A DNA stretch of 32,000 bases from Mycolicibacterium smegmatis (GTDB lineage Bacteria; Actinomycetota; Actinomycetes; Mycobacteriales; Mycobacteriaceae): the NCBI RefSeq assembly GCF_001457595.1, contig NZ_LN831039.1, positions 1,440,001 through 1,472,000 on the forward strand. Direction: 5' to 3'. This document shows positions 18,336 through 28,348 of this stretch, piece after piece. The notes beneath the pieces are model-generated. The model saw only the letters and a list, made by a program, of their open reading frames with translations, was not told the origin of the DNA and ran no database searches. Both the position numbers and the translations under genes were made by a program. Each line of letters opens with the position of its first letter. Positions within the stretch are counted from its first letter, which is position 1.

Positions 18336-18577
18336 TGCGGGTGCACATTCTCCGGGCCGACGACTGGACGGCCGGTGTGATCACACTGCTGGCGCCCGCG
18401 TAACCATGCCGGCCGTGGCGTCACCCGGTTGGGGGCGCCCGGCTGCCGGAGGCTTTCCACATCCACACGGTGGACCCGTTGCCGCGTGTCGGTCCTCATC
18501 AGCCGCTACGCAACTCCGCCCGCGTTGATTGCCGAGACCTCGTGCAAGAGAGCGGGTTTCGATCATAGGTGGATTTT

Positions 18578-18745
18578 ATGTTCGCACAGCATCCCGAATG
18601 TCCGGCGTGTGGCGGCCGGCAGACCACGAAGCTGGTGTACGGCATGCCGGTCGACACCGACTCGTGGGATCCGTGGCTGTACCCGGCCGGATGCTGCGTC
18701 ATGCCCCAGCAATGGCGCTGTGAGGTCTGTGATCACGAATGGTGA
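18578..18745 (+). CDS. Untracked 55-aa zinc-ribbon protein
   Basis: Hand translation: MFAQHPECPACGGRQTTKLVYGMPVDTDSWDPWLYPAGCCVMPQQWRCEVCDHEW. It has CxxC...CxxC pairs, AGGTGG about 5 nt upstream of the ATG, and high GC3. It falls below the ORF-track length cutoff. Confidence 0.55.
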   Translation: MFAQHPECPACGGRQTTKLVYGMPVDTDSWDPWLYPAGCCVMPQQWRCEVCDHEW

Positions 18746-18750
18746 TGCCC

Positions 18751-18858
18751 CGCGGTCTGGGGAGGTGGGGTATTCATGAAAAGTGCGATATCACCGGTGA
18801 TATCGCACTTCTTACGCAAGCACATAACGCTCACAGGTGCTGAAGTGACGGTTGTGAC
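18751..18858. repeat. Repeat module copy 1 (about 108 bp) containing a 30-bp perfect palindrome at 18781-18810
   Basis: It begins CGCGGTCTGGGGAGGTGGGGTATTCATGAAAAGTGCGATATCACCGGTGATATCGCACTTC. A 23-nt variable segment follows, and it ends CAGGTGCTGAAGTGACGGTTGTGAC. A 34-nt run (18778-18811) is identical to 21737-21770. The module starts 6 nt after the zinc-ribbon ORF stop. Confidence 0.85.
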
Positions 18859-18900
18859 GACCACTCCGACTTGTCACCACGTCTGAGTAGCGTCCGCGAC

Positions 18901-20020
18901 ATGAGTGACAAACGGAGAGCGCGCCGGGCGAAACAGGCCCGCCGCGATGCGCGACGAGCGAAGAAGCGGGATGCGGGGACGGTTCTCACGTCGGAACTGA
19001 TCGACATCATTCGCGGCACTTTGGCAGGTCATCCTGTCGAGCTGCTCTGCGTGGCCAGTCGCCTGGCGGAGGCCTACGAAGGTGACTCGCTCAGCGCGGA
19101 CACGAGTGTCGGCGAGATGTTCAACATGATGCTCACGGCGCGGGACAGGGAGACGTTGTCGCTGCTCGCAGTGCTCGCCGAGCTTCTCGTCGACAAACCC
19201 GAGATCCAGCGTCGATGTCGACAGGTGGTGGAGGAGCGAGGTCGCGGCTTGCCGCGATGGATCGCCGCACTCCCACAGATCGAGGTGCACCGGGCCGTGC
19301 GGGGCACGCACTTACTTGGTGACTTCGAGGAGATCCTGCTCGGTGCCCGTATCGACGGGACCCACGACTTGGCGGTCTCGGTCCACATCGATCACAACGC
19401 GTTGTCGAGCGTCATCGATGGGTCTGCTGTGCCTCTGTCGATCGACGAGGTGCTTGCCAAGGTAACCAAATCTGCCCGAGAGACGGAGATCTCCGAGATG
19501 AGCCTGGCAGATGCGCGAGCGTGGATCGAACGCGGGCTGGCCAGAAAAACGTGGGTTCGACAGGGGGAGAACGGGATACTCGACCGCCCCTTGCTTCGCT
19601 GGCTGGTGCAGCGGCTGCCGGACGGCGGCAAGTGCACAAGACCACACCTCGGTTCGATCAGTGTCGGGGAATTGTGTGACCAATTCTATTCCACAGAACC
19701 ATCTGCACCCTTCGGCAGCACTGAGCACCGTCTGCTGCTGTCGGAGGTCCTCCTTTGCAGCGTCGATCCGTTGCCGGTGGAGTCCCAGTCGCGTCGAACA
19801 GGTTCTGAGAGACGACAACACCTACGACGAATATCCGCTTGAAGTCGCGTTGGATCTCCCCGATCTGTTGCGTGTGTACATTCCGTTCGCACACGCGCAG
19901 CGCGGCATTCGCGACGAACTCACGTCACGAACCATCGCGACGCTTGATGGATTCGAACCCGAATACATAGATGAGGTGTTGCGACGAGCCGAGTGGTGGG
20001 ATGTCGATGACGCGGTCTAG
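18901..20020 (+). pseudogene. Protein of unknown function (about 373 aa) with a +1 frameshift near 19774
   Basis: Track ORF 18871..19842 is plausible up to ...LLCSVDPL. Track ORF 19511..20020 then continues with a plausible sequence (RWSPSRVEQVLRDDNTYDEYPLEVALDLPDLLRVYIPFAHAQRG...). The total length of 1120 nt is 3n+1, and the frames join at the CC at 19774-19775. The N-terminus is highly basic (MSDKRRARRAKQARRDARRAKKRD). The region looks more AT-rich than its neighbours. Confidence 0.6.
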
Positions 20021-21715
20021 CCCAGATTTTTCGCGGATTATCTCTGGTGAGGGCGTGTAGATAAGCGAAAGTGCCTGTCCTGCAAGGGATAATTGGACTT
20101 CTCTAGGGTTCAACCATCCTGACGGGAAGGCACTTCGCAGGTGAAGAGTATCGCGGCCGCATCGCGGGTGAAAGTGTCAGCCGACGGCCACGGGGTCGTG
20201 TCGCACGCCGGGATGGGCCTACTGCGGGAACTGGCCGACCGGACCGGCCTATCAGCGCAGGTCACCGGCGCTTTGGCCGACACCTACCGCGGGCCGTGGA
20301 CCTACGCACCCGGCGAGGTGTTCGCCGATCTGGCCGCGGCGGTCGCCGACGGCGCGGACTGCATTGACGGGGTCGGCCAACTGTGCGGCGACCGTGAGCA
20401 CGCGTTCGGCGCGAAAGCCTCCACGACCACGATGTGGCGGCTGGTCGATGAGCGCATCGACGCCGCACACCTGCCTGCGGTGCGCGCGGCCCGCGCCAGC
20501 GCGCGGGCGGCGGCCTGGGCCGCCGGTGCGGCCCCCGAACCGGGTGGCTGGCTGCACATCGACATCGACGCCACCGTGGTGATCGATCACTCCGACAACA
20601 AACACGGCGCGACGCCGACCTGGAAGAAAACGTTCGGACACCATCCGCTGCTGGCGTTCCTGGACCGCCCCGAGATCGCCGGCGGGGAAGCCCTGGCCGG
20701 GCTGCTGCGCAGCGGCAACGCGGGCTCCAACACCGCCAGCGACCACATCATCGTCCTGGCCCAGGCGCTGGCAGCGCTGCCCGCGCCGTGGCGGCCCGAC
20801 TCGAGTCGTGGCGGTGATCCCGACCGGCCCCAGGTGCTGGTGCGTTGCGACACCGCCGGAGCCACCCACCGATTCGCCGACGCCTGCCGCGAGCAGGGAG
20901 TCGGATTCTCCTTCGGCTACCCCGTCGACGCCCGCGTCCAGGACGCCGCCGACACCCTCAACCTTGCCGAGGGCTGGTACCCGGCCATCGACACCGACGG
21001 CGGCATCCGTGACGGCGCCTGGGTCGCCGAGGCCACCACCTTGGTCAACCTCAACAGCTGGCCGCCGGGCACCCGGCTGATCCTGCGCAAGGAGAGACCG
21101 CATCCCGGCGCCCAGCTGCGGTTCACCGACACCGACGGAATGCGCGTCACCGCGTTCATCACCGACACACCCACCGGTGTCGTGGCCGGCCAAGTCGCCG
21201 GCCTGGAGTTGCGGCACCGCCAGCACGCCCGCGTCGAGGACCGCATCCGCGAACTCAAGAACACCGGCCTACGCAACCTGCCGTGTCACGGCTTCTGGGC
21301 CAACGCCGCCTGGCTCGAGATCGTCCTGGCCGCCACCGACCTGGTCACCTGGGCACGGCTCATCGGATTCACCAGTGATCCGACGCTGGCCCGCGCCGAG
21401 ATCGCCACGTTCCGCTACCGCGTGCTGCACGTCGCAGCCCGCATCACCCGCGGCGCCCGCCAACTCCGGCTGCGCATCGACGCCACCTGGCGCTGGGCAT
21501 CGGCGATCGCCACCGCCTGGCAACACCTGCGCACCGCCTTCGGATAACAGCCGGCCTCCCGACCGATCGATCACGAAAGACCTACCGGCCATGGGAAAGC
21601 CCGCCCCACCCGGCGACACGGGACCACCCCAGCATGCCTTGTGACCGCAGACGTCACCCGACCAACCATCACGCCCTACAAATCCACCGCCATCACCATC
21701 GACGAAAAATCCGGG
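20021..21715 (+). mobile_element. IS1380-family insertion sequence (about 1.7 kb) flanked by a 4-bp CTAG target duplication
   Basis: The terminal inverted repeats are CCCAGATTTTTCG (20021-20033) and, as the reverse complement of 21703-21715, CCCGGATTTTTCG; 12 of 13 positions match. CTAG is present at 20017-20020 and 21716-21719. The element holds a single transposase ORF. Confidence 0.85.
20141..21547 (+). CDS. IS1380-family DDE transposase
   Basis: 468 aa with a GTG start. The N-terminus VSADGHGVVSHAGMGLLRELADRTGLS is typical of actinobacterial IS1380-family transposases, as are HIDIDATVV, the length and the C-terminal region. Family assignment is by recollection. Confidence 0.85.
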   Translation: MKSIAAASRVKVSADGHGVVSHAGMGLLRELADRTGLSAQVTGALADTYRGPWTYAPGEVFADLAAAVADGADCIDGVGQLCGDREHAFGAKASTTTMWRLVDERIDAAHLPAVRAARASARAAAWAAGAAPEPGGWLHIDIDATVVIDHSDNKHGATPTWKKTFGHHPLLAFLDRPEIAGGEALAGLLRSGNAGSNTASDHIIVLAQALAALPAPWRPDSSRGGDPDRPQVLVRCDTAGATHRFADACREQGVGFSFGYPVDARVQDAADTLNLAEGWYPAIDTDGGIRDGAWVAEATTLVNLNSWPPGTRLILRKERPHPGAQLRFTDTDGMRVTAFITDTPTGVVAGQVAGLELRHRQHARVEDRIRELKNTGLRNLPCHGFWANAAWLEIVLAATDLVTWARLIGFTSDPTLARAEIATFRYRVLHVAARITRGARQLRLRIDATWRWASAIATAWQHLRTAFG

Positions 21716-21719
21716 CTAG

Positions 21720-21818
21720 AGAAGTGGGGTACTCACGAAAAGTGCGATATCACCGGTGATATCGCACTTCGAACTCATACACACCAATCCCGCCAGGTGC
21801 GGAAGTGACGGATGTGAC
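21720..21818. repeat. Repeat module copy 2, with the 30-bp palindrome at 21740-21769; its first about 10 bp lie at 20011-20020 on the other side of the IS
   Basis: After removing the IS and one CTAG it reads CGCGGTCTAGAGAAGTGGGGTACTCACGAAAAGTGCGATATCACCGGTGATATCGCACTTC, then 24 variable nt, then CAGGTGCGGAAGTGACGGATGTGAC. There are about 5 mismatches in the first 61 nt and 2 in the last 25 compared with copy 1. Confidence 0.85.
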
Positions 21819-21838
21819 CAGCGGTCGCCGACGGACGG

Positions 21839-22672
21839 TTACCGCGCCACCAACCGATCCAGCGCCGACTGGCTGACGTCATCGGCCGCGCGGCCGATCA
21901 TCAACCGCTGATCAGTTTCCTGCATCGGCATGAACACCTCGAAATGCATGGCGATCTCGCCGGCCTGAGGATGCCGGATCACCTTCTGACCGCGTCCGCC
22001 TCCACTGACGTCCTGGGCCGCCCATAAACGAGCGAACTCGTTGTGCGCACTGGTCAATTCGCCGATGAGATCGGTCAACATCCGATCCTCCGGATGCGCG
22101 GCCCACGCGCCACGAAGATTGGCGATCGCGTCCCGCACGACGCGGTCCCGATCCACATAGAACGCGCTGACTTCTGGATGCATCAAACACACCCACATCG
22201 CGTTGCGTTGTACCGGGGGAAGCTCACCGAAATCGGTGAGCAGTCGCGCCATCTCCGGGTTCCAGGCCAGGATGTCGAACCGGTGATTCATCAGCATCGC
22301 GGGCAGTGGTGACAGGTCGCTCACCATCCGGGCGAGCGGTGGCGCCGCCGTCGTCGCCGGCTTGTCGGCCCCGCGCGGCCGCTGCCGGGCCAGGTCGTAC
22401 AGATAGGCCCGCTCGGCCGGGCTGAGCCGCAGCGCGCCGGCGAGGGCCTCGACCACCTCCGCCGAGGGCCGCAGGCCACGGCCTTGCTCCAATCGCACGA
22501 TGTAGTCGGTGCTGACCCCGGCGATCTCGGCGACCTCCTCGCGGCGCAGGCCCGGGGTACGCCGGATCGCTCGACGCATGGGCAGGCCGAGGTCCTGCGG
22601 GTTCAGGCGTTCGCGTCGGCTCCGCAGGAATGCGGCCAGTTCGTGCGTCGCATCCACGACAGAGGTCACCAT
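21839..22672 (-). CDS. MmyB-like XRE-family HTH transcriptional regulator
   Basis: 277 aa. LAAFLRSRRERLNPQDLGLPMRRAIRRTPGLRREEVAEIAGVSTDYIVRLEQGR is the MmyB-type N-terminus. The gene is divergent from an aldo/keto reductase, a common pairing for this family. Confidence 0.85.
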   Translation of the reverse strand: MVTSVVDATHELAAFLRSRRERLNPQDLGLPMRRAIRRTPGLRREEVAEIAGVSTDYIVRLEQGRGLRPSAEVVEALAGALRLSPAERAYLYDLARQRPRGADKPATTAAPPLARMVSDLSPLPAMLMNHRFDILAWNPEMARLLTDFGELPPVQRNAMWVCLMHPEVSAFYVDRDRVVRDAIANLRGAWAAHPEDRMLTDLIGELTSAHNEFARLWAAQDVSGGGRGQKVIRHPQAGEIAMHFEVFMPMQETDQRLMIGRAADDVSQSALDRLVAR

Positions 22673-23840: not shown

Positions 23841-24449
23841 TCAACTCTTCCGGTAACGCACCGCGTCGTTCACCAGGGTCACCAACGCCTTGCGCCGCAC
23901 CTCGGGGCCCTCGCCGGCCACAGTGGTGCCGAGCATGAGATCGATGGCGGCAGGGACCGCAAGCCACCACGCGGCCATCGATCGGGCCACGTAGAGCAGA
24001 TATGCCGGTGCGACGTCGTCGCGGAGCGTCTTGTCGGCTTGCGCCAGGGCAACGACGCGGCGGTCACCGGCGTAATGCTCGGCCCGCTCGTCGCGCGCCG
24101 CAGGTGGGTTGCCGTCCAACGGATTACGGTCGAGACCCTCCCACAGCAGCAACCGCAGATAGTGCGGGTACTCGCGGTGGTAGTCGTAGATGCGCCCGGA
24201 GAACTCACCGAGATCATGTGCCAGTTCTGGCGTGAGCGGGACGGCGGCGGCGAGCTTGATCATCTCCTGTTCGAGCACGGCGCTGAACAGGTTCTGCTTG
24301 CTCCCGAAGTACTGATAGATGCGTTCCTTGTTGACGCCGGCCCGCGAAGCGACGCGGTCGACGCGGGCGCCCAGCGGACCGTGCTCGCTGAACTCGTGCA
24401 CGGCGGCGTCCAGCAGCTTCTGCTTGGTGCGCGCGGTGTCCCAGGCCAT
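23841..24449 (-). CDS. TetR-family transcriptional regulator
   Basis: 202 aa. [47 protein letters not shown] is a canonical TetR_N HTH. Confidence 0.9.
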
Positions 24450-24461
24450 GCGCGCAGTCTA

Positions 24462-24491
24462 ACAGTTCCCAACTGGTCAGTTGGGAACTGT
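24462..24491. promoter_or_regulatory. Candidate TetR operator: ACAGTTCCCAACT-GGTC-AGTTGGGAACTGT
   Basis: Perfect 13-bp arms with a 4-bp spacer, lying 13 nt upstream of the tetR start and downstream of the ALDH stop. The same core recurs upstream of the first gene of the operon. Confidence 0.5.
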
Positions 24492-24512
24492 GAGAGCTGC
24501 GCACCGCCTGAA

Positions 24513-26037
24513 TCAGAAGAAGCCCTTCGCAGCGGTCGCGTAACTGGTCAGGACACACTTGGTCTGCTGGTAGTGCTCGAGCATCATCTTGTGGTTCTCG
24601 CGACCGATGCCGGACTGCTTGTACCCGCCGAACGCCGCGTGCGCCGGGGTAGTTGTGATAGTCGTTGACGAAGATCCGGCCGGCCTGGATGTCCCGGCTC
24701 GCGCGATAGGCGACCGTGCCGTTTCTGGTCCACACCCCACCCGCCAGGCCGTACAGCGAGTCGTTGGCGATCTTGATGGCGTCGGCATATTGGTCGAACG
24801 ACGTCGCACACACCACCGGACCGAAGATCTCCTCCTGGAACACCCGCATCGAGTTCGACCCCTCGATGATGGTGGGCTCGATGTAGTACCCGCCCGCGAT
24901 GTCGGCCTCCATGGTGGCGGCGTGCCCGCCCTTACGGATCACGGCCCCTTCGTTTTTGGCGATCTCGAAGTACTGCAGGATCTTCTCGAACTGCGTGCGT
25001 GACGCCTGGGCCCCGATCATCGTGGCGGTGTCCAGCGGGTTGCCCTGGACGATCTTGCCGACCCGCGCCACCGCCCGTTGGAGGAACTCGTCGTAGATGT
25101 CGGCCTGGATCAAAGCACGCGACGGACAGGTGCAGGTTTCGCCCTGGTTGAGGGCGAACATGGTGAAGCCCTCCAGCGTGCGGTCGTAGAAGTCGTCGTT
25201 CGCGTCGGCGACGTCGGCGAAGAAGATGTTGGGGCTCTTGCCGCCCAACTCCAGCGTCACGGGAATCAGGTTCTGCGAGGCGTATTGCATGATCGCGCGG
25301 CCGGTGCTGGTCTCACCGGTGAACGACACCTTGGCGATGCGGGGACTACCGGCGAGCGGCTTGCCGGCTTCGAGGCCGAATCCCGTGACCACATTGATCA
25401 CACCCGCGGGCACCACGTCGGCGATCAGTTCGAGCAGCACGTGGATCGAGGCCGGTGTCTGCTCGGCGGGTTTGAGGACGACGGTGTTGCCGGCCGCAAG
25501 TGCCGGTGCGAGCTTCCACATCGCCAGCAGCAGAGGGAAATTCCACGGGATGATCAATCCCACCACCCCGAACGGTTCGTGGAAGTGGTAGGCGACCGTG
25601 TCGTCATCGATCTGGGAGAGGCCGCCTTCCTGCGCGCGGATCGCCCCGGCGAAGTAGCGCAGGTGGTCGATGGCCAGGGGGAGGTCGGCCGCGAGGGTCT
25701 CACGCACGGGCTTGCCGTTGTCCCAGGATTCGGCAACGGCGAGTTTCTCCAGGTTGGCTTCCATCCGGTCGGCGATCTTCAGCAGCACCCCGGCCCGTTC
25801 GGACGGTGAGGTGCGGCCCCATGTGGTGGCGGCCGCTTCGGCGGCGTCGAGTGCGCGTTCGATGTCGTCGGCCGTGCCTCGTGCGGCCTCGGTGAACACG
25901 ACACCGTTGACCGGGGATTCGTTCTCGAAGTACTCGCCTTTGGCCGGCGCGACGAACTCTCCTCCGATGAAGTGCTCGTAGCGGTCGGCGAAGGTCACGA
26001 CACTTCCGGTGGTGCCGGGTGCGGAGTAGCGGGTCAT
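24513..26037 (-). pseudogene. NAD(P)-dependent aldehyde dehydrogenase, +1 frameshift in the G-run 24646-24649
   Basis: MTRYSAPGT...FTGETSTGR...[11 protein letters not shown]...EEIFGPV... reads through to ...VNDYHNYP in one frame. The canonical C-terminus [36 protein letters not shown] follows in another frame (track ORF 24513..24809). The 1525-nt length is 3n+1. The coding strand reads TACCCCGGCG where TACCCGGCG would restore the frame. Confidence 0.8.
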
Positions 26038-26045
26038 GGGATCGC

Positions 26046-26349
26046 TCACCGCCGACCGGTCTGGATGAAGTTGGTGGCGCCTCCCGTGGCGAACTCGGCG
26101 ACATCCGCGGCGGTCGCCTGGCCCTGGGGGCTCGACATGCCGGCGCGCAGATCGTCGAGGCTGTCGAAAGTCACTTCCGCGGCGAGGTAATAAGGGGCGG
26201 CGGTGTCGTCGACGCTCGCGACGTGACCGTAGGTGATGTCCACGACGCCTGGGATCGTCTCGGCCAGCGGCATGTGGAACGGACGCGAAGTAATCGTCGA
26301 AGGATGCGGGATCGTTGGGGTGGCCGTACAAGACGACGAGTTTGACCAT
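26046..26349 (-). pseudogene. EthD-family protein, +1 frameshift near 26275-26280
   Basis: [24 protein letters not shown] is in one frame, with GAGGAAA upstream. [19 protein letters not shown]...[38 protein letters not shown] follows in another. The 304-nt length is 3n+1. The coding strand reads GTTCCACATG where GTTCACATG would restore the frame. Confidence 0.7.
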
Positions 26350-26382
26350 TGTTTCCTCTGAATGTGATTGCATGCGAGTGGA

Positions 26383-28320: not shown

Positions 28321-28348
28321 CTCTTTCCAACTTCAAGGTTGGAAAGAG
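28321..28348 (-). terminator. Probable intrinsic terminator of the cox-like operon (11-bp stem, 6-nt loop, T-rich tail)
   Basis: The minus strand reads CTCTTTCCAAC-cttgaa-GTTGGAAAGAG followed by AGCTTCTTTTTG, starting 37 nt after the CoxG-like stop. The arms also fit the TTCCAAC/GTTGGAA operator-like motif. Confidence 0.55.

Follow-up and report, generated by a model that had tools for sequence, protein, structure and literature searches.

Background

Among the described elements of mycobacterial gene ends, the TRIT ('Tuberculosis Rho-independent terminator') motif occurs in 147 copies in Mycobacterium tuberculosis, and the paper that described it postulated that some factor recognises the stem in its double-stranded form (Gardner et al. 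2011, PMC3152330). TRIT hairpins are restricted to Mycobacterium, palindromic and bidirectional, located at gene termini near stop codons, and conserved in sequence as well as in structure. The REP and REPIN elements of proteobacteria are likewise extragenic palindromes behind genes; their RNA stem-loops stabilise or end transcripts, the elements are also bound by DNA proteins, they number from tens to hundreds, the whole unit being conserved, and REP have an associated RAYT transposase. The hairpin-only ('I-shaped') or bidirectional terminators of actinobacteria are stable hairpins after stop codons, found with convergent genes and flanked by A- or T-runs; ordinary terminators have neither a 22-nt apex that is invariant across loci and species nor a repeat block at a fixed offset. 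Activity in the absence of a U-tract is disputed for the mycobacterial RNA polymerase, which requires a U-tract in vitro (PMC3993855), and predicted hairpin terminators of M. tuberculosis overlap few of the mapped 3' ends (bioRxiv 10.1101/2022.06.01.494293).

Here we describe a duplicated palindromic module of Mycolicibacterium smegmatis (contig NZ_LN831039.1, positions 1,440,001 to 1,472,000; this whole stretch of 32,000 nt is referred to below as the window). The best reading, which we hold tentatively and at slightly less than even confidence, is that the module consists of a REP/TRIT-like RNA stem-loop, serving as a terminator or as a 3'-end protector, and of a putative binding block, the whole having been duplicated long ago.

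A palindromic module present twice

The window contains a 30-bp perfect palindrome, AAGTGCGATATCACCGGTGATATCGCACTT, with the halves AAGTGCGATATCACC|GGTGATATCGCACTT, at positions 18781-18810 and again at 21740-21769. A preliminary description of this DNA had reported both occurrences, and they are not a matter of chance: the 22-nt centre of the palindrome is found twice in the window against 0.00 expected in 100 shuffles. The palindrome is part of a 34-nt core (18778-18811 and 21737-21770; apex GCGATATCACC|GGTGATATCGC) that is identical in the two copies. The conserved flanks noticed earlier are borne out by alignment: with an insertion sequence (IS; see below) removed, the copies align over 109 nt at 82.6% identity, from CGCGGTCT onward, and the alignment of the upstream with the downstream flank of the bracketed gene reaches z = 41 against shuffles. 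Both copies possess a G-rich 5' flank and, as the same description had it, a second, 25-nt block beyond a non-conserved spacer; this distal block, CAGGTGCnGAAGTGACGGnTGTGAC, lies at 18834-18858 and 21794-21818, and the spacer that separates it from the palindrome is about half conserved between the copies, having diverged by about 50%. The GTGAC direct repeats seen in the block stand out as well, with two occurrences of GTGAC-N4-GTGAC in the window against 0.23 expected. Copy 1 occupies 18751-18858 on the + strand, in the order CGCGGTCTGG, G-rich box, stem-loop, spacer and GTGAC block, and a weaker likeness to copy 2 goes on to about 18870.

Copy 2 is cut by a complete 1,695-bp insertion sequence of the IS1380 family (20021-21715, + strand), identified by its transposase families, terminal repeats and target duplication. 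The 468-aa transposase ORF (20141-21547) matches NCBIfam NF033539 (357.9 bits) and Pfam DDE_Tnp_1_4, the terminal inverted repeats are located at 20016-20038 and 21698-21720 (CCCAGATTTTTCG / CGAAAAATCCGGG), and the target duplication is the 4-bp CTAG at 20017-20020 and 21716-21719. Accordingly, the 5' flank initially ascribed to copy 2, tccgggctag, is largely the end of the IS. The true 5' start is CGCGGTCTAG (20011-20020, + strand), that is, the last codons of the bracketed gene (..D-D-A-V-stop) with the TAG stop, and the remainder of copy 2 lies at 21720-21818 (+ strand), comprising the G-rich box, core, spacer and block. When the IS is excised in silico, ...GATGACGCGGTCTAG joins AGAAGTGGGGTACTCACGAAAAGTGCG... 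and the junction aligns with copy 1; since the same IS-free sequence is found in public assemblies (L013-L015, L021), the interruption can be considered established. Among the alleles seen, the IS is present in the window strain only. The true layout of the locus is, then, a zinc-ribbon ORF, module 1, a gene of about 370 codons (18901-20020), module 2 and a convergent MmyB-type regulator. It follows that the two modules of the window enclose this gene plus the IS rather than a single gene, as had been thought, and that the proposed start of each copy within a few nucleotides of a stop codon holds for copy 1 and, in the IS-free alleles, for copy 2, but not for copy 2 in the window, where the stop is 1.7 kb away. 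In Rfam, the leader of the IS (20042-20138, - strand) resembles Ms_IGR-7 below the threshold (32.9 bits, the gathering score being 45), which suggests that this M. smegmatis 'sRNA' family may be an IS leader.

Copy 1 contains the same ten bases as the 3' end of the bracketed gene, with TAG changed to TGG, and therefore goes back to a segmental duplication that took in the 3' end of the gene and the region downstream. The modules are most likely an old local duplication, paralogous and about 83% identical. Searches by tblastn and blastn for the remains of another copy of the gene ahead of copy 1 gave nothing. A micro-ORF within the module was considered and rejected: the ATG at 18776, which opens a 36-codon frame in copy 1, is ACG in copy 2, and the spacer has single-base indels that put copies and strains out of frame with one another.

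A low-copy hairpin family behind stop codons

An exact scan for the 22-nt apex, GCGATATCACCGGTGATATCGC, in one genome per species (a species-representative scan that did not return M. smegmatis itself) yielded 11 loci. Ten of these belong to Mycobacterium/Mycolicibacterium or to an Actinomycetota MAG and lie in unrelated gene contexts; the eleventh, from a Phycisphaerae MAG, is without extended arms. Each genome has one or two exact matches. A profile of the M. smegmatis modules recovered two more copies with a diverged apex, in L086 (GCGGTATCACTGGTGATATCGC) and, more decayed, in L085. Degenerate copies with up to 5 substitutions are absent from about 365 kb of mycobacterial DNA, and M. tuberculosis has no exact match. 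Collections of phages, plasmids and viral sequences gave no match either, and an origin of the hairpin from any of these was discarded. Given these counts, the family is a low-copy one and, as far as the scanned sequences tell, specific to Mycobacteriaceae. The apex thus recurs at about nine further unrelated mycobacterial loci, in keeping with the earlier notion of a small repeated intergenic element, and its position is uniform, with the stem beginning about 4-75 nt past a stop codon at every locus and 24-32 nt past the stops in M. smegmatis. Five of the loci are convergent and the others tandem, and none is divergent.

Outside the apex, the G+C content of which is only about 55%, the arms differ from locus to locus while remaining complementary for 4-19 further pairs. 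In the alignment of 12 copies, 84.9% of the cells are paired as compared to 74% in shuffles, and the co-variation score is 0.334 as compared to 0.140 (in both cases, 0 of 500 shuffles reached the observed value). Pair 24/47, next to the apex, is CG in four copies, UA in four, AU in two, and GC and UG in one each; the orthologues L006 and L010 are two double compensating substitutions apart. The core is predicted to fold as RNA on either strand, at -18.5 kcal/mol on the + strand (z = -5.3) and -22.1 kcal/mol on the - strand (z = -5.9). An attempt to derive the strand of action from wobble pairs was abandoned, the informative positions being too few and neither strand clearly favoured. The G-rich 5' box was likewise dismissed as a shared arm, its likeness to L002, L006 and L010 being weak (z <= 3.3) and the box itself polymorphic.

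The stem-loop is apparently a member of an undescribed low-copy hairpin family. Searches of the literature for the hairpin sequence found nothing relevant, and no known RNA family was accepted, the Rfam matches being limited to the weak Ms_IGR-7 hit inside the IS and to a noise-level MIR4387 hit (E = 0.86) over the copy-2 palindrome. The module hairpin shares with TRIT the restriction to Mycobacterium, the palindromic, bidirectional character, the location at gene termini near stops and the conservation of both sequence and structure. However, 147 copies of TRIT in M. tuberculosis compare with no exact apex match there and one or two apices per genome elsewhere, and no phased-repeat block has been reported for TRIT, whereas the module has one. 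The absence of an exact M. tuberculosis match and the low copy number argue that the hairpin is at most a relative of TRIT, the comparison being made with the published description of TRIT (Rfam 15 holds no TRIT model). With REP and REPIN, the module has in common the extragenic palindrome behind a gene, but its one or two exact copies per genome are far from tens to hundreds, and the apex alone, not the whole unit, is conserved; no RAYT transposase was seen in the stretches inspected.

The scatter of the apex over about 10 non-orthologous loci, sporadic among species, could also reflect a non-autonomous mobile hairpin, MITE- or REPIN-like, with many intergenic landings, two of them in this locus. 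The spacer between the FMO gene and gpsA is suggestive in this respect, since it measures 157 nt with the element, a ~93-nt inverted repeat (L006/L010), and 58 nt without it (L087), which resembles a filled/empty pair, and L004 consists of an imperfect inverted repeat of ~140 bp that has the distal block at each end. However, no target-site duplication accompanies the FMO-gpsA element in this comparison, and the comparison is confounded by the loss of a WXG100 gene, which is present in the orthologous L085/L086 and gone from L006/L010, where the stem remains, so that part of the length difference stems from gene loss. Furthermore, the copies share the apex and sometimes the block but never whole arms, degenerate copies are missing from the 365 kb searched, and the gene-end bases in copy 1, 10 nt in all, indicate that this copy arose by segmental duplication, not by transposition. 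We regard mobility as rather improbable.

Several observations on individual loci may be recorded here. In L085 and L086 (378-445 in both), the ribosome-binding site (GGAGG) of the WXG100 gene that follows is part of the 3' arm of the stem, and the stem could, by this overlap, mask translation initiation too. In L002 (2046-2118, - strand), a tRNA gene is located 60 nt from the palindrome, the order being phosphoglucomutase gene, block, stem, tRNA. The window itself contains two other palindromes: a near-perfect one of 38 bp, TCTAACAGTTCCCAACTGGTCAGTTGGGAACTGTGAGA (24458-24495), directly upstream of a TetR-family gene (23841-24449, - strand), which is likely a TetR operator, and one of 28 bp with 12 pairs, CTCTTTCCAACTTCAAGGTTGGAAAGAG (28321-28348).

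A phased block at a fixed distance from the stem

The distal block follows the pattern GGTGC-N4-GTGACG-N2-TGTGAC and begins 28-29 nt from the apex. In copy 1 (18834-18858, + strand), it reads CAGGTGCTGAAGTGACGGTTGTGAC and includes three repeats of the GTG(C/A)C type spaced 8-9 bp apart. The same block at the same offset is found in L002, from Mycobacterium sp. TY814 (z = 9.6), and in L004 it flanks the stem on both sides, with z = 4.9 on the stronger side and a block-like alignment on the other; the intergenic regions of L002 and L004 share nothing else with the window. The block is a separate conserved component, which accompanies the stem at a constant distance of 28 nt, and is most likely a factor-binding site.

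One way to accommodate these features is a composite site that acts at the DNA level, at which a dimeric protein would bind the palindrome of 22-30 bp and either this protein or a different one would occupy the phased GTGAC repeats 28 bp away, the two together forming a roadblock, an insulator or a regulatory complex. The perfectly symmetric centre, which has no obligatory loop, and the invariance of the apex across species would be expected of such a site, as would the palindrome-block distance, fixed in three species, and the strain-invariance of the block, which holds for copy 2 as well although there is no promoter behind it. A GTGAC-like pair, GCGAC-ATGA-GTGAC, is present at the start codon of the bracketed gene as well, and the half-site is similar to the published MtrA motif (PMC4285127, PMC6265350). 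Yet operators are rare between convergent gene ends, and co-variation in up to 19 further stem pairs, beyond any plausible protein footprint, is unexpected for a duplex. The MtrA parallel is itself incomplete. The mycobacterial MtrA motif, GTCACA or G-T-n-A-C, does resemble the half-site of the block (PMC4285127, PMC6265350, PMC13189361), and the MtrA box, made of direct repeats (GTCACAgcg / cG(T/A)nA(C/T)c), shares with it the GTCAC(A) half-site in direct repetition in a mycobacterium. But the period of the MtrA motif in ChIP-seq is 11 bp (PMC6265350) as against 9 bp here, and the location at a gene 3' end is atypical for MtrA, so an MtrA box was rejected in spite of the half-sites. Nor is the LuxR-type neighbour of the M. 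smegmatis locus found near the other hairpin copies, which makes a dedicated operator for this adjacent protein unlikely. A DNA-level site as such is, in our estimate, unlikely though a good deal less so than the recombination sites discussed below.

The orientation of the block invites a further possibility, namely, sibling small RNAs or 3'-UTR-derived RNAs transcribed from the - strand, with the block as a seed at the 5' end, then a variable linker, and finally the stem-loop and a U-run as terminator. The convergent gene for the MmyB-like regulator (21839-22672, - strand) has its stop about 20 nt from the copy-2 block, and along the sense strand of this gene the stop is succeeded by the block, the spacer, the stem-loop and UUUUC. 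L002 and L004 resemble copy 2 in that the block, read in the direction in which the stem comes after it, directly follows a gene's stop; the conserved-variable-conserved layout also fits such RNAs, and in both M. smegmatis copies the - strand stem runs into UUUUC, a part of which is paired in the stem. On the other hand, there is no conserved -10-like element upstream of the block, the flanks past the block are unrelated between the copies, Rfam offers no match, and copy 1 has no - strand gene feeding in. The - strand RNAs appear improbable to us.

The bracketed gene and its neighbours

The gene between the modules (18901-20020, + strand) encodes a Mycobacterium-specific protein of ~370 aa with no assigned function. 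Its family includes 115 matches, the named members of which are all from Mycobacterium/Mycolicibacterium (alignment A2), and has no Pfam domain. The AlphaFold model of the protein is confident (pLDDT 84.9), but neither its fold (best E = 0.39) nor the sequence has a significant match in the PDB, and PADLOC and NCBIfam give none either; with no fold or family to assign it to, the protein is not a recognisable recombinase or transposase. Its N-terminus is strongly basic (MSDKRRARRAKQARRDARRAKKR), and members of the family are often found beside toxin-antitoxin genes or IS elements (L017, L018, L026-L030). Two of these loci, L026 (3379-3418) and L028 (3383-3422), as well as L064 (969-1012), have orthologous 40-bp perfect hairpins, CGATTTGGAGCCGTCAAG-loop-CTTGACGGCTCCAAATCG, that differ in the 4-nt loop only, which is TTTC in one and the reverse complement, GAAA, in another, as if flipped.

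The start region of the gene (18872-18903, + strand; TGTCAC..GAGTAGCGTCCGCGAC-ATG) is conserved family-wide in the pattern TGTCAC-N9-GAGTAGCGT-N7-ATG. A -10-like TAGCGT (18888-18893) is situated 7 nt ahead of the ATG at 18901, a spacing that would imply a leaderless mRNA. The start codon itself is embedded in GCGAC-ATGA-GTGAC (18896-18909), one mismatch away from the GTGAC-N4-GTGAC of the distal block; this sequence is conserved in the family, occupying the same place in L016, L034 and L084. The small zinc-ribbon ORF (18569-18745, + strand; stop TGA at 18743-18745) lies ahead of copy 1. Its homologues precede the same ~370-aa family in four other loci, and genes for the two proteins are paired in a conserved manner in a number of mycobacteria (L041, L044-L046).

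The flanking repeats are not a general trait of the gene family, a possibility that was tried and dropped: at 38 other loci of the family none was detected (z < 4, as compared to 41 here), and because the flanks at these loci are unrelated, the bracketing repeat must be specific to the M. smegmatis lineage. In M. goodii, the gene is found in the same synteny without the palindromes. The credible homology upstream of the M. goodii gene is limited to a part of the block and the promoter, in which ..GGTTGTGAC..CTTGTCgCCAC..TGAGTAGCGTCCGCGACATG is kept; the zinc-ribbon side was probably lost by deletion. M. goodii was not accepted as an 'empty site', the flanks aligned by eye being not significant (z = 1.2).

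These data bear on the earlier comparison with a recombination site, and on a reading of the modules as att, attC or dif-like sites around a mobile single-gene cassette. The gene is indeed bracketed by direct repeats, its family occurs in many unrelated contexts, and a palindrome with arm-like repeats is loosely reminiscent of att. However, none of the nine distinct M. smegmatis alleles shows an excision between the modules or a deletion that ends at them, the gene being lost by other routes, and the 38 other family loci have no flanking repeats. No integron integrase or other integrase is called among the genes within +/-6 kb of the syntenic L012, inspection of the module ends reveals no attC R''/R' cores (RYYYAAC...GTTRRRY) and no XerD-arm motif, and the bracketed protein has no known fold, let alone a recombinase-like one. 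A Xer/dif site is laid out as 11-6-11, and its XerD arm is conserved (TTATGTTAAAT-like); the inner arms of the module, ..GATATC ACCGGT GATATC.., depart from this. Recombination is the reading that the evidence most clearly fails to support, and we consider it very improbable.

Constraint among strains

Both modules are kept in all M. smegmatis strains seen while the gene between them decays. Three proteins encoded in the window have identical M. smegmatis entries, none of them from mc2155. Several metagenome and Logan contigs carry an intact gene (372 aa, P0001); in the window it is frameshifted by an additional C near 19774, as a comparison with three other alleles shows, and hit by the IS; and in mc2155-type genomes (CP102342, CP009495) ~1 kb has been deleted inside the gene, leaving the palindromes 238 bp apart. 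The cargo variation that had been anticipated is therefore real, although the modules are never its end points.

Throughout the nine distinct module alleles, the palindrome and the 25-nt block are invariant save for one T>C in one allele, whereas the G-rich flank and the spacer are polymorphic. The module is thus more than a lone terminator hairpin, as the preliminary description had maintained, both the palindrome and the block being constrained. The two positions that tell the copy-1 block from the copy-2 block are fixed in all strains, a pattern of sequence variation that argues for purifying selection rather than ongoing gene conversion. A functionless leftover of a neutral duplication could be envisaged, since the flanking repeat is lineage-specific and the gene in between is decaying; but then the blocks would hardly be conserved while the spacer diverged by about half, strain polymorphism would hardly avoid the palindrome and the block, and the same apex and block would not turn up in other species. 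This explanation is very improbable.

A separate observation concerns L012, which is about 99.9% identical to the window through the gene's stop codon and, from module 2 on, shows 20 differences in about 180 nt (L012 7120-7300, corresponding to window 21720-21900); the abrupt change in identity points to a possible recombination breakpoint in the module or close to it. Elsewhere in the window, a 719-aa ORF (24214-26373) runs over the TetR gene and apparently results from a fusion, by frameshifts, of EthD and aldehyde dehydrogenase, and there are two further single-base gaps relative to mc2155 in the 6 kb aligned downstream of copy 2. The window either contains several pseudogenes or suffers from single-base indel errors in the assembly.

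A possible role of the stem-loop at transcript ends

Taken together, the position behind stop codons, the enrichment between convergent genes, the A-runs and T-runs on either side of the apex, and the selection for pairing beyond a protein footprint are best accommodated by a transcribed stem-loop. According to this preferred reading, the stem-loops would be transcribed and would stop, pause or shield transcripts arriving from either side, so that the family members would be bidirectional terminators or 3'-end-protecting hairpins, a counterpart in mycobacteria of REP or TRIT. The LuxR/zinc-ribbon transcript would end at copy 1, and copy 2 would close the transcripts of the ~370-aa gene on the + strand and of the MmyB regulator on the - strand, where the U-run follows the stem; the distal block would be bound by a factor.

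As in intrinsic terminators, a stable stem-loop is found just past a stop codon, and the likeness to the hairpin-only and bidirectional terminators extends to the convergent genes and the flanking A- and T-runs. However, the U-tract of about 7-9 nt that is expected 3' of the stem is not there, since the + strand reads CUUCUUAC or CUUCGAAC and the - strand only UUUUC, and a scan for consensus terminators did not call the site on either strand. REP and TRIT are, moreover, present in far higher copy numbers, and a fully palindromic centre with perfect arms would suit recognition at the DNA level equally well. Above all, a plain terminator leaves the invariant 22-nt apex and the phased block at its fixed offset unexplained, features that set the module apart from ordinary terminators and suggest a factor that reads their sequence. 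A bolder proposal, which we put forward as unlikely but worth stating, is that the apex stem-loop and the 9-bp-phased block at the 28-nt offset make up a new composite cis-element of Mycobacteriaceae that would be read by a dedicated factor, possibly as a hairpin, and would either propagate among intergenic sites or serve as a boundary mark of transcripts or of the chromosome.

Implications

How transcripts end in mycobacteria is an open question, given that canonical terminators are scarce; TRIT-like conserved hairpins have been proposed as terminators, and Term-seq and in-vitro work have not confirmed this proposal. M. smegmatis mc2155 offers a compact test object, with two selected copies of the stem-loop located 238 bp apart around a dead gene, each of them having an apex that does not vary and a separable side block. 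If the apex and the block prove to be a factor-binding unit, they would represent a new class of cis-elements; if not, the locus would be an ordinary duplicated terminator region.
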